Shown here: one piece after another, positions 2,163-38,600 of the stretch
Numbering within the stretch: the stretch's first letter is position 1
Layout: each line of letters begins with the position of its first letter
IMG/VR virus record: IMGVR_UViG_3300028557_000048
Span: 1-54,688 of that record
From: a virus
Lineage: Duplodnaviria > Caudoviricetes
Reading direction: 5' to 3' (one strand)
DNA: 54,688 bases
Notes under the pieces: model-generated
The model's database searches: none
What the model saw: the letters and a program-made list of their open reading frames with translations, nothing else
Told to the model about the DNA's origin: nothing
Program-made: the position numbers and the translations under genes

Positions 2163-2918
2163 TTATAGCTTAAGTTCGTTGATGAGGCGTTTTACTTCTT
2201 CACCAAAGAATCGTTGTACTCGTTTACAGTTATCACCGTGCCATCTAGCATAAGTGTTTACTGCATAGTATTGGTCACAATGTGAACAATACGTTTTAGG
2301 TTGCTTTTTACCAAACATTCCGTTTAATTGTCCGATTTTGAATTCAGACATTTTTTGTTTGGCTCGGGCCGCTCTAGGTTTTTTCAGTTTCTCAATAGTC
2401 TGTTGAGAGTGTTTTTTTCCATAAAACGGGGCATCCTTTCCGCTTCTAGACATACCGTGCATGGGGTTGTTACTTCCTGATACATCAGTATGACCAATTT
2501 TCATGTTGGTTTTTACCTGATCAGTAAATCCTAATTTCCATCCTTGTTCTAAATATATGTCAATGTCTTCCGCACAAACCATAATATTTTTTTCTTCTTT
2601 GTGCATTCGTTTTTTATTCTGTGTTGATGTTACATCTGGTGTTGTACAGTTATTTCTGTTGAAACTCTGCGGATTGTTTCTAGCATCAGACACATGTAAT
2701 AATTCTTTTTCTACTACCCTCATCCATTTTGATGATCCATATGCTATTATTTCTCTTTGCCAGTCGCTAGGGGTAGCTTCTATTAGAGGCTTTACATATT
2801 TACTAGAGCATATATATCCGTCGTCAGGGTGGCAATTTTTTGAAGTCCTAGATCCAATGTACCATTTACCAGATGGTAAATGAGTCCAACGATATACATA
2901 TGACAAGTTAGAAGACAT
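2163..2918 (-). mobile_element. Free-standing GIY-YIG homing endonuclease with NUMOD3-like repeats and a C-terminal CxxC...H...C motif
   Basis: N-terminal 'YVYRW...WYIGSR'; 'NNPMHG', 'PFYGKKHSQQTIEKL', 'NGMFGKK'; 'CSHC...RWHGDNC'. Coupled to the gp21 stop by TAATG. Confidence 0.85.
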
Positions 2919-3562
2919 TATATCTTCAACTCCTCTATTAGTTTTAGTATTTCTTTTTGTGCGCGGCGTTGCAGGGCTTGCTCTGTCAAAATATCTCCCT
3001 CTTTCATTGCCTGTAATAACTTGTATCCTGTTTTACTATTGAGAACGCCTTCATAAATTGCTTTGGGATATGCGTTTGGTGCACTAGGTTGGGCAACGAT
3101 ATCAACAGTGATGATTTCAAAATCACTGACTTTACCATCCATGTCGTTTACATTACCTGATCCACGACTGGATACACCTAGTTTAACTCCTGATTCCAAC
3201 ATTGTTCTTACGAGTTGACCCATTGGAGTAGGGAGAATTTTTAGTTTGCCTATTCCGTTTGGTCCGTCCATCCACATGCTTGTGATCATGTGTGATACAC
3301 GGTCTAGGTTGATTTTAAGATCATCTGGATGATCTACTTCCCCCAAAACTGAATAGCCTTCACTGACTTGTTTGTTGAGTGTTTCTACTGCATTTTCGAT
3401 TTCATGGACAGGGTAAATACGCTCATTTGCGTTCTTTACGCCGCCTTGAATGAAAATCCCTTTCATGTACAGGGTTTTTAGATCGCCGTCGCCTTCTTTT
3501 ACAGACTCGACGATCATACCTGCTTTGTCAAAGGTAAGATTTTCTCTAAGATACAAGGCCAT
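2918..3562 (-). CDS. gp21: Prohead protease, T4 gp21-like
   Basis: Motifs GIFIQGGVKNANERIYP, LGEVDHP, LGVSSRGSG, DIVAQPSAPNAY. Confidence 0.95.
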   Translation of the reverse strand: MALYLRENLTFDKAGMIVESVKEGDGDLKTLYMKGIFIQGGVKNANERIYPVHEIENAVETLNKQVSEGYSVLGEVDHPDDLKINLDRVSHMITSMWMDGPNGIGKLKILPTPMGQLVRTMLESGVKLGVSSRGSGNVNDMDGKVSDFEIITVDIVAQPSAPNAYPKAIYEGVLNSKTGYKLLQAMKEGDILTEQALQRRAQKEILKLIEELKI

Positions 3563-4591: not shown

Positions 4592-4628
4592 TAGAATTTT
4601 CTCCTGATTGAAAATGGCCTTGCATAGT

Positions 4629-4636
4629 TACTTATG
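4629..4636 (-). promoter_or_regulatory. Late promoter candidate CATAAGTA
   Basis: Variant of the recurring NATAA(A/G)TA motif, upstream of the core-protein gene. Confidence 0.5.
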
Positions 4637-4701
4637 CGCTATCTTAGAAAACAGCGTATTAACTCTGTATTTTTTGCATTTTGTAGTTAAGACTAGGTAT
4701 C

Positions 4702-4935
4702 TTAGATGCCCGGAGGCATACCGCCAGACTCTGGTTTAGGACCATATTGAGTCCTTACTTTAGAAAGATAGATATTCTTCTCGTAATTTCTAACATCTAA
4801 CATACGTCGTAATTTACGAATCTGTTTTAATGTTAGTTTGGTCTTGCGTGAGGTACGCCATACAGGCTTGCTGTTGTCGTCGTTGACATCTTGTAGCCCA
4901 TTAATAGGGGTATCAAACACCTCAGTTAATAACAT
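4702..4935 (-). CDS. Small basic hypothetical protein downstream of portal
   Basis: 77 aa with SD AAGGAG; preceded by AATAAATA (4953-4960). Confidence 0.75.
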   Translation of the reverse strand: MLLTEVFDTPINGLQDVNDDNSKPVWRTSRKTKLTLKQIRKLRRMLDVRNYEKNIYLSKVRTQYGPKPESGGMPPGI

Positions 4936-4952
4936 ACCGTTCTCCTTATTTG

Positions 4953-4960
4953 TATTTATT
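4953..4960 (-). promoter_or_regulatory. Late promoter candidate AATAAATA
   Basis: Resembles the T4 late TATAAATA; intergenic and upstream of an SD. Confidence 0.55.
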
Positions 4961-4999
4961 CATCTTATAAAATAAGACATTGGTAGATTAGTAACTCTG

Positions 5000-7900
5000 T
5001 TATATTTGCATTGGACTGTTCGGTGAAGGGGTACCGGGGCCGCCCATTGTTGGTTGTCCGGCAACATCACTTGCTACTGGACCTGTTACTTCATCTGGCA
5101 TGTTGCCTTCTTGATCTATAGAAGAAAGTTCGTCTGCCATAGTTTGGTCTGCATCGAAATCTCCAGTGGACACCCCGATATTGCGTAGATCAGAGCCTTG
5201 GGGAGACATATCAACTTCTTTCTTGTTTTCTTCTTCCCACATTTTTTCGTTCTTTTTGATTTCTTCTTCGGACAAGCCCAAAAATCTTTCAAGAGCAAAC
5301 CTCTTAGACATGTAAGGAAATGCTTCCATAGAAGCGAAGGTTTGCACCCGTGCTGTATCCATCTCTGCTTGCCGATAAGCAGCAAAATTTTGGGGAGGAT
5401 TAAACGCAATTTGAAACAGACCAGTATCAATATTGAATCCTCTCCAGCGAAGGAACAGCTTGAACTCTTCATCTAATTTCATACCGATGTAATTCTGCAA
5501 TCGTTCACAGTACTGATTGAATCTGAATTCTTGAATCATAGCAGTACCGACACGGCCATCGTTCATTGGTGTCGTGTTGTCATCTGGTCCAGTTGGCAGA
5601 TAACTTGACGGTACACGAAGACCACGAGCAAGACGATTGTTGAAGTATTTCAAGTCATCGATCTCACCAAGATTCTGTCCACCAGGAAGAACTTCAACTG
5701 ACGACCCACGACCTTCAGCGGTGACAGGAAAGAAGTAATCCTCATTCATTGAGTTTTTGACGAAAATACCCGCGTCAATAGCAAAAGTATGATAATCGTG
5801 CCACTTATGTAGTCCATCAATAGTGATAGTTCCAGTATCTCTGCTTGATACTTTAGTTATCTTTACTACCCTGTGATTGAAGTTGTCTATTTCACGAACG
5901 AAATGTTTCCAGTTGTTGTATCCGAACTGATTAAGTAATCTATCAAGCTTACTATAACCAAACTTAGTAAAATCTATTTTACAATGAGCATTTTTATAAT
6001 CTAATGAAGTGGAGTTAAGTTCTTTAACTAAGTTCAATAGTGTTATACTATTATCGCATTCTTTCAATACATCATTTTTATTTTTAGTACCACTTTTAAC
6101 GATGTCCGACACGATTTGTAACATATCAAACGACAAGTTCAACGATTGATTCTTAATCTTTACGCGATGCTCGCAGTTATCTTTAACAATCTTCATCATT
6201 TCGGGATTGCTAGCAAGATATTCTTTGCGTGACTTGCTCATGTTTTCTTTATATCGTGTAGCAACATCTACATCATTCTGTCTCAGCCAAACAGCTTTTT
6301 GTTGTGCGTTTCTAATATTCCATAGTTTCGCTAACCTATCTTCTTCTGATAAGTTTTCCCAGTATTCTTTGAGTGTATTTGATATCTTAGAAGTCATTTC
6401 TTCACGATAGTCATTAGACATTGTTTCCCAGAAGTCTTTTTTCTGTGCCGCATGATACATTATATGATCAGCTTTGTTCATATAAGTTAGATTTCTAGGA
6501 TCGTTATTGAAACGATTATAATCTTTATGATGAATAGTAGTTCTGGGTGATAACACATATTCAGCAAGATAGCTAAACTCTTGGTGCTTGCCCTTTTCAC
6601 GGAAAAACTCACCTACCATTCTATGAGTCCATACCCAAGATTTGGATTCATGATCCCATACTTGCTGATACTCGTTAGTTTTTCCTCCTGACATAGCTTT
6701 ATTCTGGGTATTGAATGCTATCAAACTATCCTGTTCAGTGAGATATTGTGCTTCAACAAAACCTTTACCAAATACCGGCAGTTTATGATCCGGAGTGCAG
6801 ATCAATGTTTTACCGTTGTCAAACGTAAGCTCAAGAACTTCCGTGTCTTTTCTAGTAACTCCGGCCCAGTTAATTACGCCCGGTACTATCTTACCAGATT
6901 CTGGATCACAACTATACGCCCAGTTTTCTTTACCTTCTTCAAACTCTGTAATAATCTCACTCAATGGTAATGTTCTACCATCCAATAATGGAATCTTTGT
7001 TTCTAAATCCAAACATAGGGGATTGTATGAAGCATCAACTATTGACGCTCCGCCATACAACGAAGGAATTCTGCGTTGGTGAATTTCATTCTTGACACGT
7101 TCAACAAATGCCATTGCTAAGTGACTCGGCATGTTGCCAACATCGATCTTGAACATTCTACGTTCAGGAGCACGTTGCACACGATAGATAAGAACAGCGT
7201 CTTCTAGTAGTTCTTTCTGCTTGTAGACCTTGAAGATGTTCTCTAGGATCGACTGACCGAATGGCCAGAATCTGTCAAGTCCTTCTGTTAATGATAAGTG
7301 GACGATATGCTTTGCGTCTATCGCAGATTCACTCTGTCCCAATGTGAATCGTGAGCCCGTAGTATTGTATGGCATTGCAGGAACCGTGTAAGGAGTGTTG
7401 GTGCCGCCTCCGGTACCACCCAAACCAGTTGCAGGGTTAGCAGCAAAGTCAGTATTCGTTTTTTGTGCTACTGATAAGTTCTGTAGGTTGATGTTGATGT
7501 CCTTTAAGACATACTGTTCTGGCTTCTTGCCTTCACTCTCGTTGACGATAACTTTAATGACTTTGACCATGTCGACCCAGTATAGTTTGAAGTTTTCGGG
7601 GTCGCGCACAAACACTTGGTCGCCGTACTTTACAACATTGCGGAAAATCTTAAATATACGGCCATTAAATTCATTTAGTTTACACCACTGCTGCAATTGC
7701 TTACTTAACAACTCTACTTCATGTGGGGTAGGGGTTTCTTTAAATTCGAAAGAAAACGGTGTCTTATTGTGTTCATTTCTTTGGGTAGAGAACTCTGCAA
7801 GAATATCTAAACATGCATTGATCTCAGCATCAACGTCCATCATTTCATATTGGTTGTAACGTTCGATTCTGTTAGGGTGACCGGTGTAGACTTCAGGAAG

Positions 7901-8062
7901 CCTACTCATATAATTTTTATAGCCAAACTCGGTGTTATTATAACCGCCGGTCGGCGTGCCATTCTGTCCAGGCGACCCATTCCAAGCCCCGCTGTTGCTG
8001 TTAAGCCCAGAAATAGGACTTGATACACCTGATTTATTTAGGAATTTCTTTTTATAGCTCAT
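5000..8062 (-). CDS. gp20: Portal protein, T4 gp20-like, interrupted by an intein (mature protein about 599 aa)
   Basis: Motifs LLEDAVLIYRVQRAPERRMFKIDVGNMP, EDYFFP, LPGGQNLGEIDDLKYF. Confidence 0.95.
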   Translation of the reverse strand: MSYKKKFLNKSGVSSPISGLNSNSGAWNGSPGQNGTPTGGYNNTEFGYKNYMSRLPEVYTGHPNRIERYNQYEMMDVDAEINACLDILAEFSTQRNEHNKTPFSFEFKETPTPHEVELLSKQLQQWCKLNEFNGRIFKIFRNVVKYGDQVFVRDPENFKLYWVDMVKVIKVIVNESEGKKPEQYVLKDININLQNLSVAQKTNTDFAANPATGLGGTGGGTNTPYTVPAMPYNTTGSRFTLGQSESAIDAKHIVHLSLTEGLDRFWPFGQSILENIFKVYKQKELLEDAVLIYRVQRAPERRMFKIDVGNMPSHLAMAFVERVKNEIHQRRIPSLYGGASIVDASYNPLCLDLETKIPLLDGRTLPLSEIITEFEEGKENWAYSCDPESGKIVPGVINWAGVTRKDTEVLELTFDNGKTLICTPDHKLPVFGKGFVEAQYLTEQDSLIAFNTQNKAMSGGKTNEYQQVWDHESKSWVWTHRMVGEFFREKGKHQEFSYLAEYVLSPRTTIHHKDYNRFNNDPRNLTYMNKADHIMYHAAQKKDFWETMSNDYREEMTSKISNTLKEYWENLSEEDRLAKLWNIRNAQQKAVWLRQNDVDVATRYKENMSKSRKEYLASNPEMMKIVKDNCEHRVKIKNQSLNLSFDMLQIVSDIVKSGTKNKNDVLKECDNSITLLNLVKELNSTSLDYKNAHCKIDFTKFGYSKLDRLLNQFGYNNWKHFVREIDNFNHRVVKITKVSSRDTGTITIDGLHKWHDYHTFAIDAGIFVKNSMNEDYFFPVTAEGRGSSVEVLPGGQNLGEIDDLKYFNNRLARGLRVPSSYLPTGPDDNTTPMNDGRVGTAMIQEFRFNQYCERLQNYIGMKLDEEFKLFLRWRGFNIDTGLFQIAFNPPQNFAAYRQAEMDTARVQTFASMEAFPYMSKRFALERFLGLSEEEIKKNEKMWEEENKKEVDMSPQGSDLRNIGVSTGDFDADQTMADELSSIDQEGNMPDEVTGPVASDVAGQPTMGGPGTPSPNSPMQI
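5753..7015 (-). mobile_element. 421-aa intein with HNH endonuclease domain in the portal
   Basis: Starts NPL|CLDLETKIPLLDG; block B 'LICTPDHK'; HNH 'IHHKDYNRFNNDPRNL...H...H'; ends 'YHTFAIDAGIFVKN|S'. Removing it rejoins YNPL-SMNEDYFFP. Confidence 0.93.
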
Positions 8063-8083: not shown

Positions 8084-9808
8084 CTATGAGGCTTTCCATT
8101 TCCATGTTGTCTGACCACAGTCCCATATGCGATCAAACCCACAAGATTGCATAATTTCCCATTCTGACATTGACCCGTCGTAGCCTTCTGCGACAAGCTT
8201 TGCCTTTTGAAATTTATTTCTAGAAAACCGCTTTTTATAATCTGTGTAGCAATATCCAACATTCGTTGATGTGTTGACAAATCCAAGTTGTTTATACACG
8301 TTGCCAGTGAACCAACGATTATCACTATACGATACTATAGATTTAGGAAAATAAGTTTTGACAAACATAGACATCATTTTATTTGCGCCGCCCACAACAC
8401 CAGTCGAAGAACAATATCGAATCAGTTCCCACTCAACCGTGTTGTTAAATCTTGCCTTACGAAATGTCATTATAGATATCAACTTATCGTTAAATTTCAA
8501 TCCAATATTAACTTTTGCAGGGGCGAAGCCTTGGATGTGATTTTGTTCTATGAACATCTTTGCTTCGTTGTGGCTGATCTCTTCAACTGAGCATTGTCTA
8601 GCATACAACGGCACTGACGATTTACCCAAAATATTTATTAGTATTGCTTTACACTGCTCTTTTCGGTCATCCCATTCGTCTTGAAACATTGTGACAAGCC
8701 TGATTCCATGCTCAGCGCAATGTTTATGCTTACTTGCATGATAATTTCTTGTCCGACTCGACGAATTTTCTGAGTGCCAGTACAATCCTCCGCACTCAAT
8801 CGCAACATTCAAATTTGGAATGTAAAAATCTAGCTCTTGCGGAAAAATGATGTTGCGATTTCCTTGTTCGTAAGTAATGTTGATGCTGGTTAGCCATTCT
8901 GCTATTTCAATTTCAAATTTACTAGACAACGGACGAGCAAACAACTTGCTAGCATCATATTTCTTCGCGTATAGATACAATGTATGTGGGGCTATTTTTA
9001 AAATAGTGATAGCTTCTTCTCTGGTCTTACCTGATATTGTTTGAGTGAATAGGTTTTCGTCGTCGAGAATTTTTAAGGTATCGTCGGGTATATAGATTCT
9101 ACTAGCAGCCCCAACGTTATATCTTTCGAATAAAGTAACTTTTCGTTTTAGATTTACCGTGCTGACATCGTTGTTGGCTTGCCAACTGTCTCTCATCTGT
9201 TTGACAGAATTTTTGTTCTGTAATGGAAACAGTACCCCGTGTTTTTCAGCATGTGTTGTTTGAGTTTTTAGTTGCTGTGAGCCAAGTTTCATGTGATGTG
9301 TTTCACCATACCGAACTAAGTTAGTATTCTGCGTTTTAAGTTTTGATATAGTTTTTTCTTCGTTTGATCTACTATTTTTCTTAGATTGGACCAACTCTTG
9401 TTGAGACTTCAGTTTCATATGATGTTCAACACCATATTTTTCTAGGCTAGTTTGTTTGATTCGCTCTTGAATTCCGGGAATTTGCGAAGAATTTGTAACT
9501 CCATATTTTTCCAAAAAACCCTGCTGTTGTTTTTCTATTCTATCTCTTATTACATCTTTGCATTTGTTTCCAAGATCACATCCAGTACGATATCCTGTAG
9601 TAAAAGTATTGAACTTGCGATAGTTTCCATCAGAACATCTCGGGGGTTCACCGTTCAGAACAATGTAAACCTGTTCCATAGTGTTTTTAACTGGATATTG
9701 AACTGTAGTATGTGTTAGCCACTGAACAATATCAGGACGAGTTTTTAGCCATTTTGGCATTGCACATAACTTTCGGTGTTTCAAAAAGTTTTGAATTTCT
9801 GTGATCAT
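8084..9808 (-). CDS. Hef-like putative homing endonuclease: N-terminal 'EKYGV' repeats, Vsr/PD-(D/E)XK nuclease, C-terminal GNAT/Mom-like region
   Basis: Repeats LEKYGV/VRYGE/EKHGV/ERYNV; 'ELDFYIPNLNVAIECGGLYWHS'; 'ELIRYCS...GGANK...SYSDNRW.TGNVY'. Confidence 0.75.
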   Translation of the reverse strand: MITEIQNFLKHRKLCAMPKWLKTRPDIVQWLTHTTVQYPVKNTMEQVYIVLNGEPPRCSDGNYRKFNTFTTGYRTGCDLGNKCKDVIRDRIEKQQQGFLEKYGVTNSSQIPGIQERIKQTSLEKYGVEHHMKLKSQQELVQSKKNSRSNEEKTISKLKTQNTNLVRYGETHHMKLGSQQLKTQTTHAEKHGVLFPLQNKNSVKQMRDSWQANNDVSTVNLKRKVTLFERYNVGAASRIYIPDDTLKILDDENLFTQTISGKTREEAITILKIAPHTLYLYAKKYDASKLFARPLSSKFEIEIAEWLTSINITYEQGNRNIIFPQELDFYIPNLNVAIECGGLYWHSENSSSRTRNYHASKHKHCAEHGIRLVTMFQDEWDDRKEQCKAILINILGKSSVPLYARQCSVEEISHNEAKMFIEQNHIQGFAPAKVNIGLKFNDKLISIMTFRKARFNNTVEWELIRYCSSTGVVGGANKMMSMFVKTYFPKSIVSYSDNRWFTGNVYKQLGFVNTSTNVGYCYTDYKKRFSRNKFQKAKLVAEGYDGSMSEWEIMQSCGFDRIWDCGQTTWKWKAS

Positions 9809-13834: not shown

Positions 13835-14659
13835 ATGAACAACAATCCACTTAAGCAGTATTTCAGAAGACCGTCGATCTATCTCAAGTTACCTAGCGGT
13901 GGAAAAAACTATGCACCCGGCGTAATCGACATGCCCGAGACCGGTGAACTCCCAGTATATCCTATGACTGCAATCGACGAAATTACTGCTAGAACTCCCG
14001 ACGCATTATTTAATGGGGTAGCAGTTGCGCAGTTGATTGCAAGTTGCATTCCTGATATCAAAGACCCATGGCAAATCAACTCAATGGATTTAGATGCAAT
14101 TCTTATTGCTGTAAGAGCCTCTAGTGGTAACGGTGAGATGAAGGTAGAATCAACCTGTCCTGCATGCGGCGAAACAAGTCCTTACTCTATAAACTTAGTT
14201 GCGATATTGTCTTCGCTCGAACCAGGTGATTATTCTACTCCACTGGAGATAAACGAATTGTCATTTAAATTCAAGCCACTAACCTATAAACAATTGAACG
14301 ATGCAGCAAAAGAACAATTTAGTGTACAACGTGTATTTGCCACATTAGACTTCATCGAAGACGCTGAACAAAGAGCAACTACTAGTGAAGAAGCACTAAG
14401 AAAAATTACCGAACTAACTATGGACATTGTCAGCAGCGGAATAGAATATATACAAACACCTACGGTCAAAGTAACAGAAAAAGAATTTATTAATGATTTT
14501 TTGCATAACTGCGACAAAGAGATGTACATCTCTATTAGAGATTTCAATAGTGAGCTTAAAAGAGCAACTGAACTGAAGCCACTAAAGATGAAGTGTGACA
14601 GTTGCGAACATGAATACGAACAGAGCTTTACGCTAAATCCAGCAGATTTTTTCGAGTAA
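13835..14659 (+). CDS. gp26-like baseplate hub / tail assembly chaperone
   Basis: 'NPLKQYFRRPSIYLKLPSGG', 'PMTAIDEI', 'DLDAILIAVR', two CxxC motifs, C-terminal 'DFFE'; SD AAGGA. Confidence 0.75.
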   Translation: MNNNPLKQYFRRPSIYLKLPSGGKNYAPGVIDMPETGELPVYPMTAIDEITARTPDALFNGVAVAQLIASCIPDIKDPWQINSMDLDAILIAVRASSGNGEMKVESTCPACGETSPYSINLVAILSSLEPGDYSTPLEINELSFKFKPLTYKQLNDAAKEQFSVQRVFATLDFIEDAEQRATTSEEALRKITELTMDIVSSGIEYIQTPTVKVTEKEFINDFLHNCDKEMYISIRDFNSELKRATELKPLKMKCDSCEHEYEQSFTLNPADFFE

Positions 14660-14883
14660 GGCTTCTTCGTGCGTCACCTGAAGACATCAAGAAGCTTATA
14701 GATGGGATGGAAAACGAAGTCAGGGATATCAAAAAATCATGCATGTCGATGGCATGGTATATGAGAGGTGGTATTACCTATGATGAGATTCTTAATCTAA
14801 GCGAAGAAGAACGCAAGTCAATTAGCGAGATCATCGAAAGCAACCTAGAAGTAACAAAAACTTCTCAGATGCCATTCTTCTAG
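14653..14883 (+). CDS. gp51-like ORF in the -1 frame overlapping the gp26-like stop (not in ORF track)
   Basis: Open frame RVRLLRASPEDIKKLIDGMENEVRDIKKSCMSMAWYMRGGITYDEILNLSEEERKSISEIIESNLEVTKTSQMPFF*; first ATG at 14707 has no clear SD. Confidence 0.75.
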   Translation, partial: RVRLLRASPEDIKKLIDGMENEVRDIKKSCMSMAWYMRGGITYDEILNLSEEERKSISEIIESNLEVTKTSQMPFF

Positions 14884-14888
14884 CAAAC

Positions 14889-14926
14889 GTAATAGGGAAA
14901 ATTATTAATTTAATTTTCTCTATTAC
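14889..14926. terminator. 16-bp AT-rich hairpin directly after the gp51-like stop
   Basis: GTAATAGGGAAAATTA / TAATTTTCTCTATTAC with one G-T pair; lies where two transcription units converge; no clear U-tract. Confidence 0.5.
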
Positions 14927-15061
14927 CATATTATACCATTCTATATCTTGGAGAGTTGTTCTTCGAACAACTTATACCTAACTCACTTCGTTCGTTCGGT
15001 CTACTCTTTTTCTTTGTTTAAATCTCTTAATTAAGGGTTCTTCCATATAAGTTCTAGAAAC

Positions 15062-15432
15062 CAATTGCCGATTTTGAGCCATGGTAGTGCTAATTTAGCA
15101 CTACCAAAGTTTTAGGATGCCATGACCCGTCACCTTTGCTATCTGTTCCCCGATATACTAGCCCTGTTCTTTGCTGTATAACGCCACCGGTTGCCCTGTA
15201 AAGTAATGATGGGACTGTAGTTGAGGCCGTAGCACTCAGCAACGCATGTTCTACATCTTCAAGATAGAGTATAATGTAGACTCATTCCGGGTTCGCAAAA
15301 CCATGTCGATTGCCCGGTCGGTGTTCCATAGACAACGCATGTCTACGCTTTTTGAGAGAATGCACTCTCGGCTCCAGATCCGTAACGCAGGTGTCTGCGC
15401 CCTCAAGGAGAGTCGAGCAACCCCGACCAAAC
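15062..15432 (-). ncRNA. Candidate large structured non-coding RNA (or structured replication origin), family not recognised
   Basis: GC-richer than its flanks, no credible ORF, at least ten helices. G-U pairs and a cUACGg tetraloop are consistent with the minus strand. Confidence 0.55.
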
Positions 15433-15591
15433 AGCTATGTATGTATAATCCCAAACAATTATGTATGTATGAGCAAGACTTTGTGTCTGATGAGCTTTAT
15501 ATGGGATAAATGAGTGGCAAGACTTTGGTGTCTGTGAGTATATTAAGAAAGCTAAGTATTGAGCGTTATGTTTCCGGACATGGTGTCTGTG
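15427..15591. repeat. Cluster of short direct repeats
   Basis: CCAAACA(GC/AT)TATGTATGTAT at 15427-15446 and 15451-15470; GCAAGACTTTG(G)TGTCTG at 15473 and 15517; TGGTGTCTGTG again near 15581. Confidence 0.75.
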
Positions 15592-16109
15592 TTAGTATTA
15601 GGTGAAGCTGAATAGATTTTAAGAAGGTCTTTGTTGAGCTTGAAAAAATGATTGAATTCGATAATCACCCAGTCTCCTGTCGTAGCAGAACTATAGTAGA
15701 TGAAATTATCGGTAACCCAAGTATATTTTGTTTGCACTGCAACATACTTGCCTTTGCGGTCGAACTTCATGAACAAGATGTTACAATCATTGTCTTCGGC
15801 TACATCCATGAGTTGCTTGATCCAAGAATCAAGTTGCTTGCACTCACCAGTCAACACCAAATGAAAGGGGAAGTCTTTATAATTTTTGCATTCGGCATTG
15901 AAGTTTTTAAAAGTTTCTCCTGGAACAATATCCCCCTTGAAACTCCTAACCTGATCCTCATGTAAGTATTGTTTCCTAGCTTGATTCTTGCCGCCAATGT
16001 ATGCACCCGAACTAGGAGCTCGGATGAAACTTTCGTCGTACGTTTTCGAAAGGAAGCTTGCAACTTCTCTTTCGAATGATGAACCTTTAGCTTTTTGTGG
16101 TGAGGGCAT
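15552..16109 (-). CDS. Holliday-junction resolvase-like PD-(D/E)XK nuclease
   Basis: 'SPQKAKGSSFEREVA...RAPSSGA...GDI...ECKNYKD'; true start probably ATG 16109 (MPSPQ), 5 nt after GATAAATC. Confidence 0.75.
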   Translation of the reverse strand: MPSPQKAKGSSFEREVASFLSKTYDESFIRAPSSGAYIGGKNQARKQYLHEDQVRSFKGDIVPGETFKNFNAECKNYKDFPFHLVLTGECKQLDSWIKQLMDVAEDNDCNILFMKFDRKGKYVAVQTKYTWVTDNFIYYSSATTGDWVIIEFNHFFKLNKDLLKIYSASPNTNTDTMSGNITLNT

Positions 16110-16149
16110 ACTATGATTTATCACTTGTAATGACGCTGAAATAAAAACT

Positions 16150-18228
16150 TTAGTCGATATCACTAGTGGTCGAGTAACTAGTAAATCCACCTTCTTTGAT
16201 TACTGTTAACACTCGATCAACTCTGCTTGTCAGTTCTTCTTTATGACTCACTAACCAAATAGATTTGTTACGATTTCGCGTTAATGTTTTCAGGATGGCA
16301 AGTGAATTTTCTAGTCCAATACTGTCCATACCAGAATCAACAAGTTCATCAATAAAGATCGTATTGATCGGGAAATATAGATTTTCCCAAACATCACGGA
16401 ATGCAAAGGAAAGCGCAAGTATTAATCTATTCATCTCGCCGCGACTAAGATTGTGAAAATCTAGTTCACGACCTAATTCGGTGATCTCAACTGTTAAGTC
16501 GTTCTTGAATATAACAGTGTGCGGAAGCCCGATCTTATCTAGATAATAAGTTAGTCTGGCATTGAGGTAAGACAAGTTTTGATCGATGATCTTCTTGCGC
16601 ACGAACGAATCCTTGCTAGTCAACAGGTCGAGCAAGAACTTCAAGTGATCAGCGATTTTAGTAAGTTCGTTGATACGGTCGAATTTAATTTCTTGTAATG
16701 CTGATTTTTCCATGTCATTGATCTGGTCTATATACGGATCAACTTCGTCTACTTTACGCTGTATCTGCTGCAATAAATTAGCAACTGTACTACGATGTTC
16801 GATTGCTTCGATTTCAGTATCATAGTGTGTTATCGGAGCAGATCCTAATACTTCGTCGGCGTAATATTCATCGATCTGTTCTATGTAAGGATCCGATTCG
16901 GCGTTCTTGGCATCGATTTGATTTTGAATATTTTCAAGTTCCGAACTATGCTTGATAGCTTCTATGTGTGTCTTGTAATGTGTAACAGGAACATTGCCTA
17001 AAACATACACAGAATTTTTATTTTTTTCTAAATCATTTTGGGTTTGGGCAAAATCTTGGCGAGCAGTCATAAGAAGGTCCTGCTTACTCGATATCACGGC
17101 TCTGTGATTATCATCGTGGAAATCTTGACCACACGTATAACATTTGTTTTTTTCAAGTGTTGCTATTTCTTTTTCCAACTTGATAACAAGATTCTCGTCT
17201 TTCTTGAGTGTTGATTCTAAAGCAACAGTAGTCTTGTTGATAGTAGCAAGTTCAATTTTTTTACGATTGTATTCAGCTAGGTCGGCGTGCGCTTGTAGCT
17301 CAGAAACAATATTGATTGTCGATAACAAAGTATAGCTATCTTGCAAAGTCCTCACATCCAAATCACGCTTTTGCTTCCATGCAGTTTGCCGAGCTAAAAA
17401 CGCATTGTATAGTTCTTGCTTTTTCTTTTTTTCTTGGTATAATGTCAATGATTTATGAGCAACCAATTCAGCATCGATGTCGATCTGATTTAGATTATCA
17501 TATTCGGTGACTAAACTGTTTAGGTCTTCGGTATGTTTGGCATTCCATAATCTCCCACGACGCCGAAGATTTTCGATTTGTTCTTCAACTCGTCTATTGG
17601 CTTCTTGTATAGTTCTGGTCTTGAACTCTTCCTGCTCAATAGATTCTTTAATGGACTTCACTTGATTCTTGATAGCTTCTGCTTTCTCAGAGAGTAAAGT
17701 GATACCAAGCAATTGTTCAATGATTTTGCGCTGTTCTCCGGCGCCTAATGCTAGAAATGGTTCTGTGTAGGTGTTGAGTACAACAATATGCTTAAACATA
17801 TCATGTGTCATGCCAATGCTACGTTCGATTACCATTTGGGTATCTTTATTTTCACCCTGTGCATCATCTTTCGCATCTTGTAGCTGGTTGTTGACATAGA
17901 ACTTAAGCGCATGTGGTTTACGACTGCGTTCAATCCTGTATTCGGTGCCGTTAGCACTGTATTCAAGCGCAACTACCATGCCCTTGCCGTTGGTTCGGTT
18001 AATTAGGTTGTCCTTACGAATTTGGTTAATTGGACTGCCGAACAATGCATAACTGAGTGCTTGGATCATAGTAGTTTTTCCTACACCGTTGCGTGCACCA
18101 GCCCCGCCTAAATCTAAGTTATGCCCGAGAACCAAGATTAATTCGTTTGTGTTCAGTGATATTGTTTGCGGTACTGCACCCACACTTAAAAAGTTACGAA
18201 GGGTGATATTATTGAAGACAATACTCAT
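16150..18228 (-). CDS. gp46: Recombination ATPase, T4 gp46 / Rad50-SbcC-like
   Basis: Walker A 'NGVGKTT', zinc hook 'CYTCGQ', signature 'LSRGE', Walker B 'IFIDE', 'VSHK'. Confidence 0.95.
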   Translation of the reverse strand: MSIVFNNITLRNFLSVGAVPQTISLNTNELILVLGHNLDLGGAGARNGVGKTTMIQALSYALFGSPINQIRKDNLINRTNGKGMVVALEYSANGTEYRIERSRKPHALKFYVNNQLQDAKDDAQGENKDTQMVIERSIGMTHDMFKHIVVLNTYTEPFLALGAGEQRKIIEQLLGITLLSEKAEAIKNQVKSIKESIEQEEFKTRTIQEANRRVEEQIENLRRRGRLWNAKHTEDLNSLVTEYDNLNQIDIDAELVAHKSLTLYQEKKKKQELYNAFLARQTAWKQKRDLDVRTLQDSYTLLSTINIVSELQAHADLAEYNRKKIELATINKTTVALESTLKKDENLVIKLEKEIATLEKNKCYTCGQDFHDDNHRAVISSKQDLLMTARQDFAQTQNDLEKNKNSVYVLGNVPVTHYKTHIEAIKHSSELENIQNQIDAKNAESDPYIEQIDEYYADEVLGSAPITHYDTEIEAIEHRSTVANLLQQIQRKVDEVDPYIDQINDMEKSALQEIKFDRINELTKIADHLKFLLDLLTSKDSFVRKKIIDQNLSYLNARLTYYLDKIGLPHTVIFKNDLTVEITELGRELDFHNLSRGEMNRLILALSFAFRDVWENLYFPINTIFIDELVDSGMDSIGLENSLAILKTLTRNRNKSIWLVSHKEELTSRVDRVLTVIKEGGFTSYSTTSDID

Positions 18229-19241
18229 GTGTTAAGATATAACTCTAGTAGTAGTTTTGGATCATATAAATCACTTTCGATCTTTGTGATCTGGTCGATA
18301 ACGATCTGGTCAACACTTTCGAAACTTACGTCTCCGGGAGCAAGGTCAGACGCATATTCACTATTTTTAATAGGAATCAATGACATCTCTCGCAAGTTAT
18401 ATTTTGGGATCAATGTCTCACGAATGAAACTAGCTTCTTCATATGATATATCAATGTCTAGATGCACTCTAATATTTCCTTTAGGTAAAAGCAACCCATC
18501 TGGGTTATCTAGTACTTCGCTTAACTTGTAAACGCGAAACACGGGTTGATCAGGCCACGAATGAAACTCTGGTTCTTGGTCCCATTCAAGTACCATCATA
18601 CCACGAGCATCATCACCGGCGTCTGCATAATTATGAGGAAACGCATTGCCGATATACCAGATGTTTTTGCGAGATTGTCTCTTGTGAAAGTGTCCAGAAA
18701 ATACACGTTCGAATCTAGCAACATGATCAGAGTTTAGTTCGCCGTGATCAGGCATCTCGATCATTGCATTCATGAAAAAATGTGGCAATTCTAAGTGAGC
18801 AAACAAATATTTACCACTCATCTTTGCTAGTTTTTTATAGTCATCCCCTATTAACCATGGAGCAATTACTACATCACCTTGCTGAAACCAATCATTGACG
18901 ATGATAACGTTGGGAAGATGATTTGCCCACTCGACTGAATGAACATCTCTACGATCACGGTAATACAAGTCGTGATTGCCTGGAATGAAGTATACTCTTT
19001 CGAAACTAGCGTTTAATCGTTCTAGGGCCCGAAGACCAAACTGAAGGGTGTGAATATTAATGCTTGCTCTATGGTGATTCCAATCACCTAAGAAAAAACA
19101 AGTTTCACATCCTTCCTCTTTAGCCTTACTGATAAACCAATCTATGAAATCAAGACAGTCTTGGTTATGTTGTAAGCTGTTGCTTTTAAGACCAAAATGA
19201 ATATCAGTAAGGACAGCAGCTTTTTTAAACAAATTACTCAT
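18225..19241 (-). CDS. gp47: Recombination nuclease, T4 gp47 / Mre11-SbcD-like
   Basis: Metallophosphoesterase motifs TDIHFG, GDW, GNHD, SGHFH; ATGA overlap with gp46. Confidence 0.95.
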   Translation of the reverse strand: MSNLFKKAAVLTDIHFGLKSNSLQHNQDCLDFIDWFISKAKEEGCETCFFLGDWNHHRASINIHTLQFGLRALERLNASFERVYFIPGNHDLYYRDRRDVHSVEWANHLPNVIIVNDWFQQGDVVIAPWLIGDDYKKLAKMSGKYLFAHLELPHFFMNAMIEMPDHGELNSDHVARFERVFSGHFHKRQSRKNIWYIGNAFPHNYADAGDDARGMMVLEWDQEPEFHSWPDQPVFRVYKLSEVLDNPDGLLLPKGNIRVHLDIDISYEEASFIRETLIPKYNLREMSLIPIKNSEYASDLAPGDVSFESVDQIVIDQITKIESDLYDPKLLLELYLNT

Positions 19242-32656: not shown

Positions 32657-35600
32657 ATGGCTAGAATCAGGACACTCGATTTCCTTCCGGAAATATTTCA
32701 AACTCCAACTAATGCACAATTTTTGGCGGCTACGCTTGATCAATTAGTGAATCCGCCCGAATCCCAGCGTATCCAGGGATATATCGGTAGCAGACTTGGC
32801 TACGGCATAAATGCTGTAGATAGCTATGTAGTAGAGCCAACTAAAACTCGTAGAAATTATCAATTAGATCCGGGCCTAGTATTCACTAAACCAAACGAAT
32901 CGACTGCACAGGACTTTATCACGTATCCTGGAATCATTGACGCATTAAAGATCAGTGGCGGTGTTACTAACAATAACGACAGATTATTTAATAGCCAGTT
33001 CTATTCATGGGATTCATTTACTAATTTAGACAAGATCATCAACTTCGACCAGTATTACTGGTTGCCTGAAGGACCTCCTTCAGTTACAGTATCTGTTGCC
33101 CCTGTCTTCTCTTCAGAAAATTATATCGTAACTGATTTGGCTTCTACGTACGATATCAAGGTAGTAGGCAGTTTTGCTGGTTCGTCGAATCCTACATTAA
33201 CTCTATTGCGGGGAGGCACATATACTTTTGCAGTCGATCAGGAATCACAGTTTTGGATTCAAGGTGAACCTGGGGTATCTGGGTTTTCTCCCATCCAAGC
33301 TAATCAACCTGTTCGAGATGTTTATGGAGTGAGCAACAACGGTGCCTCAGCGGGATTAGTAACATTTAATGTTCCTAGCAAAGATGCACAAGCACAATAT
33401 AATTTTTCAGGCAACAATACAGTAGGCGTTGTTAGTACGTTACCTTTCGATCAAGTCAATGGTGTTCTTCTTTCTGAATTGGAAAACATCGACGGAGTAA
33501 CGTCACTTGACGGGTTGACTGTTATGTTTTATAACAATGGGGTAGTCGATGAAATCGGATATACCTCTTCGTACCTAGCGGAAACCCCATATGATGTCAA
33601 CGACGATCAAATTGTTGCACCGTTAACGCTTACAGTTACGAGTTGCAACACGACATCTTTTACTACCAGCTCAACTATTCAATTGGTAGTTAATCAAACA
33701 ATAACGTTTGATAACCCAGTGTTTGGTGGTGTCACCGCCGGACAAGTTTATTTTATCAGTGCAATTCCAACTTCGACGACGTTCAACATTTCAGAATACA
33801 TCGGCGGCCCAAATATCGTATTAACTCCCGACTCGGGAGCGATGGTTGCGAATATAAATCAAGGGCTATATCAACAAGGGTTCTATTCTACAGTCGCAGA
33901 GAACTTCTATCTGATCAGCTATGTTGGAAATCCTGATAATCCTGTTCTTAGGCTTACCCCGGCAGGTCTTATTCCTACTGAACAAAAGATCATACCTCAA
34001 TATGGAACAGAATGGGTAGCTAGACCATTCTATCGAGATATTAACGGGGCAATCAATCTAGTTCCTTACATCACTGCACCCCTTGATGTGTTGTATTATC
34101 AAGACGGGACCACTTCGTCTAAAGTAGGTGTTATTCGCATCATCGATAGCAACACTACAAATTTGCTGGACGTTGACACTGACATAATTGGGCAAAAAAC
34201 CTTTACTTCCCCAAACGGTATTGTTTTCACTAATGGACTTAAAGTGTCGTTCGACGGTGCAGTTGTTCCTTCACGTTATTTGACCGGGGAGTATTACGTA
34301 GAAGGGGTAGGTACTGCGATTGAGCTTATTCCAACAACCTCGCTTGTTTGCCCGGAAAAATTCACAATTGGTGAGTTCAATCCATGGGATATTGCCCCGT
34401 TTGATATCGGAAACTTTGACATTGGATTATATATTCCAGTAGATCCAGACTACATCACGATTGCTAGAAATTCGATCAACAAGAATGCCTGGTCAAGAAG
34501 CAATCGATGGTTTCACGTCGCTGTTATTCAAGCGACTGCTACGTATAATCAAAATCCTGAAATTCTAAATGTGTTGGCCACTGCAACAAACAAAGCAAAA
34601 CGCCCAATAATCGAATTTTATCCTAACCTAAAGTTGTTCGATTCAGGTACTTTCGGCAAACCATTAGTTGATTTTATCGATACCCGTTGCACTGATGCAT
34701 TGTCAATTGTTGCGGGCACACAAAGTTATTACCCAGACGTAGAAGTTTATACTGAGTACACCGGAACGATTGGTTCGGTAGTTTCAGCCACGACCACAAC
34801 AGTTATCATTCCCACTAGCGACATCACCGGTGAATTTCAAATCGGCATGTATATTGCAGACACGACCAATATATTGCCGACTAATACTCAAATCACCGCG
34901 ATTACAATCAACGGGTTAAACACTGAACTAACAGTAAGTTGGGAAAATGCAACTACACTTGCATCAGCCGCCGCTGCATCGATAACTGGCTCTGATCTTA
35001 ACATCAATAACTATGGATTGTTTTCTGGTGCTAGAGTGGTATTTTCTGCCGACGCCGATATCAATGTTAGAAATAAAATTTATATAGTAGATATCTCAGA
35101 AGTCACTAGCGGTGAACCAATGGTCATTACCCTTGCTGAAGCTGAAGAAGGGTTGCGTCAGAACAATGATCAGATTGCAATCTTGCGCGGGTATACACAT
35201 CAAGGTACTTCGTTCTATTATGACGGAATCAACTGGAATCAAGCACAACAAAAAGTTACGGTGAATCAAGCCCCGTACTTCGACGTATTCGACGCTAACG
35301 GGGTATCATTGGGAGATCCTGAAGTATATATAGGAACATCATTTAGCGGCTGCAAGTTGTTCGCGTATGGACTCGGAGCTGGCGCTGATGATCCTGTTCT
35401 AGCTTTTCCTGTACGATATTCCTCGATAGCTAACGTAGGTGACATTAGCTTTGATGTATCGCTTAACTCAGACACGTTTAGTTATGTTTCGGGGACAGAG
35501 CCGATAACGCAACAAGTTAACACTGGATATGTATACAGTTACGTTGGTAGAGAAACCTTTGTCAGACATCTTGGCTGGGAGAAGGCCATCGCTCCTTCTA

Positions 35601-38600
35601 CTCAATATCAGGTATTTGAATTTGGATTTAATATTTTCCGCCCATCAACCCCTCTGAACACCTATGTTTGTGATATTGCCGCATCACCTACCCCGAGTTT
35701 AACTAATCCTGGTTGGACTCCTGTTCAAGTGTTCGTCAACAATGTTTACCAAACACCTGACAAATACACCGTTACCATTGGCAATAGCACTACTAAAATT
35801 GTATTGAATGATACTCCTACCGAATCTACTATTATTCAAGTACTGATCATCAGTGATCAAGTAAGCAAGACTGCATACTACACTATTCCAATTAATTTGA
35901 ATAACAATCCATTGAACGACGACATCACCACAGCTAACATCGGTGATATACGTTTACAATATCGCGACATCTTCATCAATGCACCCAACACGACGGGTGA
36001 CCTCTTTGGTTCAAACAACTATAGAGATTTAGGAAATCTAGTGCCCTACGGCACTGCGATTATTCAGAACTCTGCGTCACTTGTGTTGCCGGGTACATTC
36101 TTACGCAAACAAAATTATAATCTGTTTGATGCACTGTTGTTCAACAGCAGGGAATACATCAAATATAAGCAATTGATTGTTGACACCGTTAACAATATGG
36201 ATCTTGTGCAAAGATATCTGCCTGCTCAACTTCTAGATATGGCACTAGATCAGATCACTGATGCCAAAAGTCAAATTCAAGCATTTTTCTGGTCAGACAT
36301 GCTTCCAGTTAAGTCAGCATTCCGTACCAATACTTATACGTTTGCCAACACACTAGATACAACGATATATCCATTATCAAAAGTATATAATTTTCAAACA
36401 GCAAATTATGACGGAGTTCTAGTTTATCTGTCACGTATCGTAGACAACAATCGTGTTCAACGGCAATTGATCAAAGGGGTTGACTACAGTGTCAGCGCCG
36501 AATCTCCGTCATTGACTATCACTCTCGACCTACAGCCAAACGATCAAATAACGATCAATGAATATAATCAGACATATGGCTCTTATGTACCCAACACTCC
36601 AACTAAGTTGGGAATGTATCCTGCGTCAATTCCGGGCGTGGTACTAGATTCTGATTATTCGCAGCCTACTTATTTTATTAAAGGACACGACGGTTCTTAT
36701 ACTAAGCTGTATGGTACGTACATTCCTGAAACTCAAGTTCTCGTCGATTTCAGAGACCAAGCTCTATTAGAATTCGAAAAAAGAGTTTATAACAACCTTA
36801 AATTAAATGCAGAAGTTCCAATACAAAGATATGAAGTTATTCCTGGATATTTCAGAGACCCAACTTATACTTGGAATGAATTCTTAGAAATTTATACCCC
36901 GTCTTTCTTAAACTGGGTTGGTCAAAATAGATTAAATTACAAGACCCAGCTTTACAATAAGAACAACCAATATACCTACAACTATACAAGTGCAAGCAAC
37001 AAGATAGATAAGGCACAGATCGATCAAGGGTATTGGAGAGGTACATACGAATATTTTTATGATACGACTACTCCTAATTTGACCCCTTGGGAAATGCTGG
37101 GCTTCGTTGACGAACCTAGTTGGTGGACAGAACGATATGGTCCGGCTCCGTACACAAGCGACAACGGTATTCTTTGGGCTGATCTAGAAGCCGGATATGT
37201 TTGGAATAACGGAAGTTCCTACATTATCCCTGAACTAGCTCGTCCCGGACTATCAAACATCATTCCAGTCGATACTGCAGGCAATCTGTTGTCTCCGTTA
37301 ATTTCGATTGTTGGAAATTACAACCCGAATGCTTTTCAGAAAGATTGGAAAGTAGGAGACGATGGCCCAGTAGAATTCTCATATCGTCGCAGTTCGTCAT
37401 TTCCATTCGATGTCATGCGAATCTTTGCGTTGACTCGACCAACTGATTTCTTTAATTTAGGGGTTGACCTCGACAATTACAAATACAATACTGAATTTGA
37501 ACAGTATCTAGTCAATGACAGAAGTCATCTAGTAGTTAGCGATGTAGAGATTTATGGCGATGGCATTGCAAAAACATCATACATCAACTGGATAGTTGAT
37601 TATGCGAAGCAAATTGGACTAAACGCAACTCAAAATATCAAGGATCTACTTTCTAATCTCGACGTGAGATTGATTTACCGACTTGCTGGATATAGCGACA
37701 AAACATTGCTCAACTTCTATGTTGAGAAAGGCACGCCCAACTCACGGAATTCTTCCTTGTTGATTCCAGATGAGAGTTATTCTGTATTATTGTATGATAA
37801 TCAACCATTTGACAAGTTAATGTTTACTGGTATTATTATCCAGCAAGTTCCAAATGGTTGGAAAGTATATGGTAACTCGCAGAATTTTGCATACTTTACT
37901 GTACTTGATCCATTAGATAATGGTAATTATGAATATACTGCTGTTGCAGACATCACTGTAAAAACTACAGCGTCGTATAAGACAACGGAAACTCTTGTTC
38001 CGTACGGTACTATGTTCTATACTGCACAAGACGTGTCACAATTTATATTGAGCTATGGTGCTTGGGTAGAATCAAAAGGTATGAAGTTCGCAGAAATCCA
38101 GAATGGTATTGAACTTAACTGGACGCAAATGGTTTATGAGTTCTTGTATTGGGCACAGACTGGTTGGGAAAATGGTAGCGTAATTACGCTCAACCCAGCA
38201 GCAACTACATTGTCAGTCGATACCGGAACCTCTATCGTACAGCCGTTGACATTGCAACAGATCAATTTCATACTCAATCAGAATTTGTACCCAATACAAT
38301 CAACTGACATGTCTGTTAGTCGGGTAGGTACGGAATTTACCGTCAACGCGTTGAATCAAGGTGACACGATATCATACGCACAATTTAACTTCAGTAACTT
38401 TGAACACGGCATCGTGTTTGATAATGTAACATTATTCAATGACGTAATTTATAATCTAGTAACTGGTCTTCGCCAAAACCGTATCAAGGTAATTGGAACT
38501 AAGAGTGCAGCGTGGGACGGCACGGTAAATGCATATGGCTTTATTCTTAACCAAGACAATATTACCGAATGGTCGCGAGAAATAAAGTACACCAAAGGTT

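Follow-up and report, generated by a model that had tools for sequence, protein, structure and literature searches.

Large, intricately folded RNAs with many invariant unpaired bases are rare, and the known examples are either ribozymes, core ribonucleoproteins or long-standing puzzles such as OLE, GOLLD and ROOL. The latter are bacterial or phage-borne ornate RNAs that were found by comparative genomics, have no known biochemical function, and have been reported to assemble into RNA-only homo-oligomers (PMC12286853). Among jumbo phages, the Pseudomonas phage PA5oct makes four ORF-less transcripts of 236-619 nt (ncRNA001-004, "putative lncRNA") of unknown function, two of which are abundant through infection and each account for 1-5% of phage reads (PMC7318152). 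Here we examine a 54,688-nt stretch of a caudoviricete genome (IMG/VR record IMGVR_UViG_3300028557_000048; hereafter the window), whose longest gene-free gap, 14884-15551, holds a conserved, structured non-coding RNA of about 370 nt on the minus strand that belongs to an uncultured jumbo phage lineage related to the Rak2-like and PA5oct phages. Its function is unknown, and no description of it was recovered from the literature searched, although a catalogue of candidate structured RNAs from IMG/VR, which lists motifs of 29-151 bases (PMC10690425), could contain unnamed fragments of it.

Distribution and genomic setting

The conserved core of the element spans 15064-15432 (minus strand), with conservation across relatives starting at about 15432, just 5' of the first hairpin, and ending at about 15064. 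It is GC-richer than its flanks, with values of 0.46-0.485 for 15100-15499 against 0.315-0.40 on either side. The region downstream of the upstream nuclease gene is 70-75% identical at the DNA level in 17 of the 18 first relatives, whose nuclease proteins are 63-95% identical. Profile searches with nhmmer recovered the whole element in 133 of 138 IMG/VR loci and in 54 of 118 metagenome pattern loci. The former include 115 full-length copies, 90 of them distinct, which are 58-100% identical to the window (median 67%). A covariance-model search found exactly one copy in each of 5 long relatives (244-525 kb).

These homologues occupy one syntenic slot, in which SbcD, SbcC and a PDDEXK nuclease are followed by the RNA and then by convergent baseplate genes. 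In the window the upstream neighbor, on the same strand at 15552-16190, is a PDDEXK_15 nuclease gene (Pfam PF24608, E 1.5e-24) that follows the SbcC- and SbcD-like genes, and such a gene lies upstream on the same strand in 100 of 101 IMG/VR loci and 33 of 33 metagenome loci. On the other side, a 58-aa ORF at 14707-14883 (plus strand) follows a T4_baseplate-family gene (13835-14659), and the next gene is convergent in 112 of 112 IMG/VR loci and 51 of 52 metagenome loci. Hence, the element is not a riboswitch or other cis-regulatory leader. A conserved motif upstream of the RNA proved to be the C-terminal coding sequence of the nuclease gene, which is repeated in the window at 15473-15600.

Searches for known RNA families gave no match. 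In the whole window there were no Rfam 15 matches at gathering score, and at E up to 10 on 14850-15700 there were only three unrelated weak hits, none inside the core apart from a 25-nt hairpin match; further, 10 homologous loci gave no consistent weak hits. ARAGORN detected no tRNA or tmRNA in the window. A pattern scan of 185,579 prokaryote genomes gave no matches, nor did a BLAST search of the gap against 50,697 phage records. Likewise, the nhmmer profile and a covariance model of the central domain (R1) found no match near SbcC in the cultured phages PA5oct, Atu_ph07, Vibrio phage 2.275.O, EJP2 and Phosso, and R1 found none at E below 0.1 in their whole genomes.

Covariation and the predicted fold

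Folding of the single sequence was only modestly better than that of shuffled sequences, with z-scores of -2.0 on the minus strand and -3.1 on the plus strand (0 of 100 shuffles as good). On an alignment of 39 sequences RNAalifold predicted 62 pairs, 40 of them with compensatory changes, and a 16-helix model of 83 pairs that we derived is 92.2% paired, against 78.7% when shuffled and at most 42.6% when slid, with 50 pairs showing compensatory double changes. None of 500 shuffles reached any of the five measures used; however, as the sequences are related by descent and the structure was partly derived from the same alignment, this is not a probability, and the slid controls are the fairer comparison. 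Over the model pairs, G-U/U-G combinations outnumber A-C/C-A combinations by 156 cells to 48, which identifies the minus strand as the RNA strand, as inferred in the initial annotation. Although the window has ORFs of 87, 67 and 50 aa across this region, the element does not look protein-coding: variability by codon phase is flat (0.232, 0.248 and 0.242), only 178 of 1528 indels are multiples of three, and an invariant AUG after the hairpin P9 opens no conserved frame, as frames and stops differ between relatives.

The 5' domain begins with the P1 hairpin (15411-15428), in which 5 of 5 pairs have changes on both sides and 91.8% of cells are paired. It is followed by a segment (15372-15410) in which a 4-bp helix, P2a (15407-15410 with 15372-15375; 97-100% paired, 2 of 4 pairs with double changes), encloses conserved single-stranded runs and the variable hairpin P2 (15387-15398). 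In the RNAalifold register P2 is mostly paired in the 39 rows with compensatory changes at every pair, whereas the columns assigned to it in our 16-helix model were out of register (9.9% paired). An additional hairpin at 15354-15369 is real in the window but is a lineage-specific insertion present in 2 of 39 alignment rows. The P3 hairpin (15327-15347) is variable in length, with 7 of 7 pairs showing double changes and 87.8% paired. The central domain (15185-15323) is a four-way junction, in which P4 (15319-15323 with 15185-15189) closes P5/P5a (15287-15317), P6 (15246-15285) and P7/P7a (15190-15243), with P7 carrying a 26-nt, almost invariant internal loop. On a covariance-model alignment of 83 distinct sequences this domain is 96.1% paired, with double changes in 23 of 34 pairs and at most 39.2% pairing in slid controls, and model R1 hits 94 of 98 sources.

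The 3' domain includes the P8 hairpin (15152-15182), with double changes in 9 of 10 pairs and 92.7% paired, and P9 (15082-15106), a 10-bp hairpin that was also found as a 100% complementary inverted repeat. P9 is 95.9% paired, but its sequence is almost invariant and only 1 pair shows a double change. Around P9, the region 15064-15138 contains conserved single-stranded motifs and same-letter covariation between 15125 and 15071, but its fold is unresolved. Three long-range, pseudoknot-forming helices tie the loop of P6, the internal loop of P7 and the junction after P8 (15139-15150) into one core: 1) PK1 pairs 15262-15267 in the P6 loop with 15139-15144 (6 pairs, 100% of cells paired, 5 of 6 with double changes, and among the top mutual-information pairs); 2) PK2 pairs 15211-15214 in the P7 internal loop with 15147-15150 (96.1% paired, 3 of 4 with double changes); and 3) PK3 pairs 15215-15216 of the same loop with 15268-15269 (98.7% paired, 1 of 2 with double changes). 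The 39-sequence alignment has about 80 invariant columns, many of them in loops and junctions, and many invariant unpaired bases lie in the pseudoknotted core.

The initial annotation had correctly placed a large multi-domain RNA in this gap and named ten helices, of which seven are supported by compensatory changes in relatives: 15412-15427 (P1), 15386-15399 (P2), 15328-15346 (P3), 15287-15317 (P5), 15250-15280 (P6), 15154-15180 (P8) and 15222-15238 (P7a). Of the others, 15190-15243 (P7) is invariant in sequence except that its closing pair covaries, and is hence neither tested nor contradicted; 15354-15369 is the lineage-specific insertion; and 15077-15127 pairs in 82% of cells but shows no compensatory change, has one inner pair that is unpaired in 25 of 37 rows, and overlaps the base of a stronger hairpin. 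The UACG tetraloop that it had noted is not conserved, and it had missed P9, P4, P2a and the three long-range helices.

Beyond the core, an A/T-rich stretch directly upstream of P1 (15433-15447, minus strand), with an A-rich run conserved in most relatives, might represent a -10-like promoter element, although a scan for the sigma-70 consensus found nothing here. About 60-100 nt past the core, a module at 14954-15001, whose strand is unknown, comprising a hairpin with a conserved purine-rich loop and a second hairpin, is conserved in 91 downstream sequences. A 16-nt inverted repeat at 14889-14926 (94% complementary), which also gave a weak sub-threshold Rfam ctRNA match, is a possible two-way terminator between the convergent units. 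A 17-nt complementarity between the P6 loop and 14938-14954 did not look conserved in the few relatives inspected by eye.

Possible functions of the RNA

The above observations make us highly confident that 15064-15432 is a structured RNA gene on the minus strand; it is best explained as a stand-alone gene for a large, pseudoknotted non-coding RNA that is inherited vertically as a single copy in one jumbo phage lineage. With more than 170 loci carrying it, the family is well populated, and it offers a concrete hint that giant phages depend on large non-coding RNAs. In the absence of expression data the transcript ends, promoter and terminator are inferred, with the RNA transcribed on its own from the A/T-rich element upstream of P1 and ending before the convergent baseplate genes. 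The one sequencing run examined, labelled RNA-Seq but possibly DNA, gave three short low-depth contigs at 95-99% likeness across 3 kb, which says nothing on expression, and no metagenome contigs start and stop at the ends of the RNA. We tentatively favor the view that it acts in trans as a compact folded RNA whose conserved core binds a partner, most likely a phage or host protein, and thereby works as a ribonucleoprotein scaffold or regulator during infection. No partner has been identified, and nothing in the present data distinguishes protein binding from catalysis or self-assembly. In one locus, L138, the neighboring nuclease gene is replaced by a different 147-aa ORF while the RNA is retained, in keeping with a stand-alone, trans-acting role.

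Alternatively, the convergence of three covarying long-range helices and invariant unpaired bases on the same loops might build the active site of a new large ribozyme, for which the size and complexity of the RNA would not be unusual; however, no ribozyme family in Rfam matches even at E up to 10, no substrate or processing site is apparent, and we consider this unlikely. Comparably doubtful is an RNA-only particle of the kind reported for GOLLD, ROOL and OLE. Invariant self-complementary hexamers occur at the P7/P4 boundary and at the 3' base of P9, and the frozen P9 stem is as would be expected if it also pairs in trans, but one of these two palindromes is fully used by the intramolecular helices P7 and P4. 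A more far-reaching, and in our view unlikely, possibility is that this RNA, as a ribozyme or a self-assembling particle, is an essential single-copy gene, and that the different element in the same slot of Rak2-like phages and the abundant PA5oct transcripts reflect one unrecognized habit of jumbo phages, namely running part of their infection program with large structured RNAs.

The remaining possibilities are less likely still. The position of the RNA directly after the nuclease gene could suggest a cofactor or guide for the PDDEXK nuclease or the SbcCD-like pair, but fixed gene order in a vertically inherited lineage is weak evidence of a functional link, L138 lacks that nuclease gene, the neighbor is a PDDEXK_15 protein rather than a TnpB-, IscB- or Cas-type nuclease, and we saw no variable guide-like segment that tracks flanking DNA. 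Equally improbable is a cis-acting 3'-end element that stabilizes the SbcD-SbcC-nuclease mRNA, or insulates and terminates transcription between the convergent units: its location, the lack of a consensus promoter and the hairpins and inverted repeat that follow would fit, but such an element does not need some 370 nt with three covarying pseudoknots and dozens of invariant unpaired bases, and a conserved A-rich, -10-like run directly precedes P1. The replication origin or R-loop primer proposed as an alternative in the initial annotation gains no support and is very unlikely. Although the RNA is a GC-richer island next to recombination and replication genes, the covarying pseudoknots and the G-U bias point to selection on a folded RNA rather than on DNA or a hybrid, the local skew profile only mirrors the switch of coding strand, no iterons are conserved across relatives, and a primer transcript would not be expected to need such a conserved tertiary core. 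That the region is instead a protein-coding stretch or a DNA-level site, such as a cruciform or packaging site, is largely refuted, despite the slightly better plus-strand fold, by the lack of coding signatures, the roughly 3:1 excess of G-U over A-C and the pseudoknot covariation, which DNA cruciforms cannot explain.

Comparison with described systems

Like the GOLLD, ROOL and OLE RNAs, this RNA has a large multi-domain fold with conserved pseudoknots and many conserved unpaired bases, and many GOLLD and ROOL examples are likewise encoded by phages. However, it has no Rfam model match to these families, is shorter than those RNAs appear to be, and was found only in one jumbo phage lineage. 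The phi29 packaging RNA (pRNA), a phage-encoded structured RNA that appears to work as part of a protein machine rather than as a regulator of a neighboring gene, is probably less than half as long; there is no Rfam pRNA match and no evidence of a link to the packaging motor. ColE1 RNA II and the T4 origin transcripts are likewise non-coding transcripts near replication or recombination functions, but they appear to act through an RNA-DNA hybrid at the origin, and no origin features were found here. PA5oct is the nearest cultured relative by SbcC similarity (about 40% aa), and its ncRNA001-004 are similarly ORF-less RNAs of a jumbo phage, but they sit at other genome positions and show no similarity to this family, with no nhmmer or R1 hit in the loci examined for this comparison (L160-L163) and no R1 hit in the whole PA5oct genome.

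Interestingly, cultured Rak2-like jumbo phages (Asteriusvirus, Mimasvirus, Eneladusvirus and others), including phages of E. coli, Salmonella, Cronobacter and Erwinia, hold a different, unannotated non-coding element of 450-600 nt that is conserved at 68-88% across genera. It gives no profile match to this family in either direction and no covariance-model match, RNAalifold gave no comparable architecture for it, and the short motifs shared by the two occur in a different order. Further, it has 5 copies in phage EJP2, against one per genome here, and each copy has a clear sigma-70-type extended -10 promoter. Nevertheless, a short conserved block similar by eye to that at 14954-15001 follows it, and, as judged from annotated neighbors in EJP2, GAP32, PBECO4, CBB and fHe-Yen9-03, one copy sits in the same syntenic slot, after the SbcD/SbcC genes and a nuclease gene and before a convergent small ORF and a baseplate-hub-like gene.

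Genomic setting and recovery of homologous loci

The window is a 54.7-kb fragment of an IMG/VR virus record rated 16% complete, which implies a genome of about 340 kb. It encodes portal, baseplate and tail proteins, together with a single open reading frame of 6444 aa (32657-51991) downstream of the baseplate genes. The portal gene (5000-8062) is unusually long (1020 aa) and has an HNH-endonuclease-like match in its middle (residues 505-548), while the next ORF (8084-9808, 574 aa) matches homing or HNH endonuclease families, suggesting an intein or a mobile endonuclease insertion. The element studied here lies in the longest gene-free gap, 14884-15551, which is bounded by convergent genes: on the minus strand an SbcD-like gene (18225-19241), an SbcC-like gene (16150-18228) and a PDDEXK_15 nuclease gene (15552-16190) run towards the gap, and on the plus strand a T4_baseplate-family gene (13835-14659) and a 58-aa ORF (14707-14883) do likewise. 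The second-longest gene-free gap (4592-4999, about 410 nt) lies between two minus-strand genes and has no Rfam match. By SbcC similarity (about 35-41% aa) the nearest cultured phages are jumbo myoviruses, namely PA5oct, Atu_ph07, Phosso, a Vibrio phage and the Rak2-like Asteriusvirus group.

The stretch is GC-richer than its flanks and folds somewhat better than shuffled sequence, with z-scores of -2.0 on the minus strand and -3.1 on the plus strand; however, the decisive evidence comes from relatives. A search with the nuclease protein recovered 18 IMG/VR loci, in 17 of which (the 18th ends too early) the DNA downstream of the gene is 70-98% identical to the window over 240-680 bases. The first alignment already showed hairpins kept by paired changes next to long invariant single-stranded runs. 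An nhmmer profile found the whole element in 116 of 120 loci and in 133 of all 138 loci; of these copies 115 are full length and 90 are distinct, being 58-100% identical to the window (median 67%). Among the metagenome pattern loci 54 carry the element and the rest are chance matches. Thus, the initial annotation's observation of a large structured element in this gap is confirmed and extended.

Predicted architecture of the RNA

RNAalifold, applied to 39 sequences all under 88% identical to each other, predicted 62 pairs, 40 of which have compensatory changes, and mutual information on a 91-row alignment (the window plus the 90 distinct sequences) added three long-range helices. We constructed an 83-pair, 16-helix model, in which 92.2% of cells pair, against 78.7% when shuffled and 30-43% when the partners are slid by one to three columns. 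Changes on both sides are seen in 50 pairs, and no shuffle out of 500 reaches the observed value on any of the five measures used. As these sequences are related by descent and the model was derived from them, the slid controls are the more honest yardstick, and they are far below the model. A covariance model of the central domain (R1) hits 94 of 98 sources, the four misses being the same four pattern loci that nhmmer also rejects; on its alignment of 83 distinct sequences 96.1% of cells pair and 23 of 34 pairs are compensatory.

Read on the minus strand, the model begins with hairpin P1 (15411-15428), followed by a 4-bp helix (15407-15410 with 15372-15375) that encloses the variable hairpin P2 (15387-15398). 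The window and a few close relatives carry an extra hairpin at 15354-15369, after which comes P3 (15327-15347). A four-way junction is closed by P4 (15319-15323 with 15185-15189) and holds P5/P5a (15287-15317), P6 (15246-15285) and P7/P7a (15190-15243), and is followed by P8 (15152-15182) and P9 (15082-15106). The 17-nt loop of P6 pairs with 15139-15144 (PK1), with 100% of cells paired and 5 of 6 pairs compensatory, and the same loop pairs through 15268-15269 with 15215-15216 in the 26-nt internal loop of P7 (PK3). That internal loop in turn pairs through 15211-15214 with 15147-15150 (PK2). Three distant segments are thus drawn into one core, and many of the roughly 80 invariant columns lie there. 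Interestingly, in 7 of 39 relatives the P2 hairpin carries an exact 9-base copy of the 5' strand of the invariant P9 stem, and in 8 more it carries a copy with one or two changes; this copy, which the window lacks, could compete for the P9 3' strand or bind the same partner, though it remains unexplained. Likewise unexplained, positions 15125 and 15071 covary with the same letter (G-G, U-U, C-C), which does not fit ordinary pairing; each precedes a similar conserved motif, a third copy of which forms P5a and its loop in many relatives.

Over the model pairs G-U/U-G cells number 156 and A-C/C-A cells 48; therefore the RNA is read from the minus strand, as the initial annotation had proposed. 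Column variability shows no three-base rhythm, only 178 of 1528 pairwise indels are multiples of three, and the invariant AUG after P9 opens frames that differ in phase and stop early in many relatives. Hence, this is not a protein gene, and neither can the pseudoknots be explained by DNA cruciforms. No Rfam 15 family reaches its threshold anywhere in the window; at E up to 10 only unrelated weak hits appear, and ten homologous loci show no consistent weak hit. ARAGORN finds no tRNA or tmRNA. As no gene follows the element on its strand, it is not a leader or riboswitch.

Gene neighborhood, phyletic distribution and inferred transcription unit

The PDDEXK gene lies directly upstream on the same strand in 100 of 101 IMG/VR loci that reach far enough and in 33 of 33 metagenome loci, and the 58-aa ORF lies convergent downstream in 112 of 112 and 51 of 52 loci, respectively, the one miss being an offset caused by a truncated RNA; these counts include some loci cut from the same contig. 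In one relative (locus L138) the PDDEXK gene is replaced by a different 147-aa ORF (2653-3096 of that locus), while SbcC, the RNA and the downstream genes stay in place. Five long relatives (244-525 kb, three rated at least 90% complete) each hold exactly one copy by the covariance model. No match was found in one genome from each of 185,579 prokaryote species, in 50,697 phage records searched by BLAST, or in the complete genomes of five related cultured jumbo phages searched with the covariance model. The family therefore looks confined to one uncultured jumbo-phage lineage. Three RNA-bearing metagenome loci (L187, L208 and L217) have record names that say marine or TARA, and the one sequencing run with near-identical fragments is labelled lake water, from which we draw no further conclusion on habitat.

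In the absence of expression data the transcription unit can only be inferred. An A-rich, -10-like run directly precedes P1 in most relatives, whereas a sub-group that includes the window has a different conserved run there; a sigma-70 consensus scan finds nothing. In the window this run is duplicated in tandem (15427-15470; 20 of 24 bases, 90% identical), the duplicated stretch directly preceding and entering P1, and the duplication is seen in the window and its closest relative only. Further upstream, at 15473-15600, lie three copies of the conserved C-terminal coding motif of the PDDEXK gene, two of them beyond its stop codon in the spacer before the RNA, so that they look like remnants of a local duplication. 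About 60-100 nt past the core lies a second conserved block (14954-15001), consisting of a hairpin with a purine-rich conserved loop and then a second hairpin, which is conserved in 91 relatives and might or might not belong to the RNA. It is followed by a 16-nt inverted repeat (14889-14926) next to the stop of the convergent ORF, to which the same uncertainty applies.

Functional implications and comparison with other phage RNAs

The above observations show a stand-alone, single-copy, vertically inherited gene for a compact, pseudoknotted RNA with a strongly conserved core, supporting the central part of the initial annotation, namely that this is a large unrecognised phage ncRNA. From the conservation of unpaired bases gathered by tertiary pairings we infer that the three-dimensional shape is the product under selection. 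We tentatively favor an RNA that binds a partner, most likely a protein, and works in trans as a ribonucleoprotein scaffold or regulator, although this remains short of an even chance. A ribozyme and, slightly less so, an RNA-only assembly like ROOL and GOLLD are individually unlikely but live alternatives. A role as cofactor of the neighboring nucleases is doubtful and is weakened by the gene swap in L138, while an equally doubtful cis-acting 3'-end element, and the still less likely origin primer, do not explain the tertiary conservation; the origin reading offered as an alternative in the initial annotation is not supported. Function remains open, and the family is well suited to structure determination and activity screens.

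We found no description of this RNA in Rfam 15 or in full-text literature searches, although the IMG/VR catalogue of candidate structured RNAs, which lists only motifs of 29-151 bases (PMC10690425), may contain unnamed fragments of it. The nearest precedent is the set of four RNA-seq-defined, ORF-less transcripts of PA5oct, two of which each account for 1-5% of phage reads (PMC7318152); they share no detectable sequence or structure with this family. While examining cultured relatives we found that Rak2-like jumbo phages (62 INPHARED records from nine host genera) hold an unannotated, non-coding element of 450-600 nt, seen in Escherichia phage EJP2 (L144:6930-7560) and also in loci L146, L147, L149 and L151 and in the paralogues L153-L159. 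This element has no Rfam match and no profile match to the present family; a few short motifs and the conserved block downstream look alike by eye, but homology is unproven. It is conserved at 68-88% across genera and sits in the same syntenic slot as the window's RNA. Each record has 4-5 matching places, which in EJP2 group into five sites, and in the copies we aligned each is preceded by a clear sigma-70-type extended -10 promoter.
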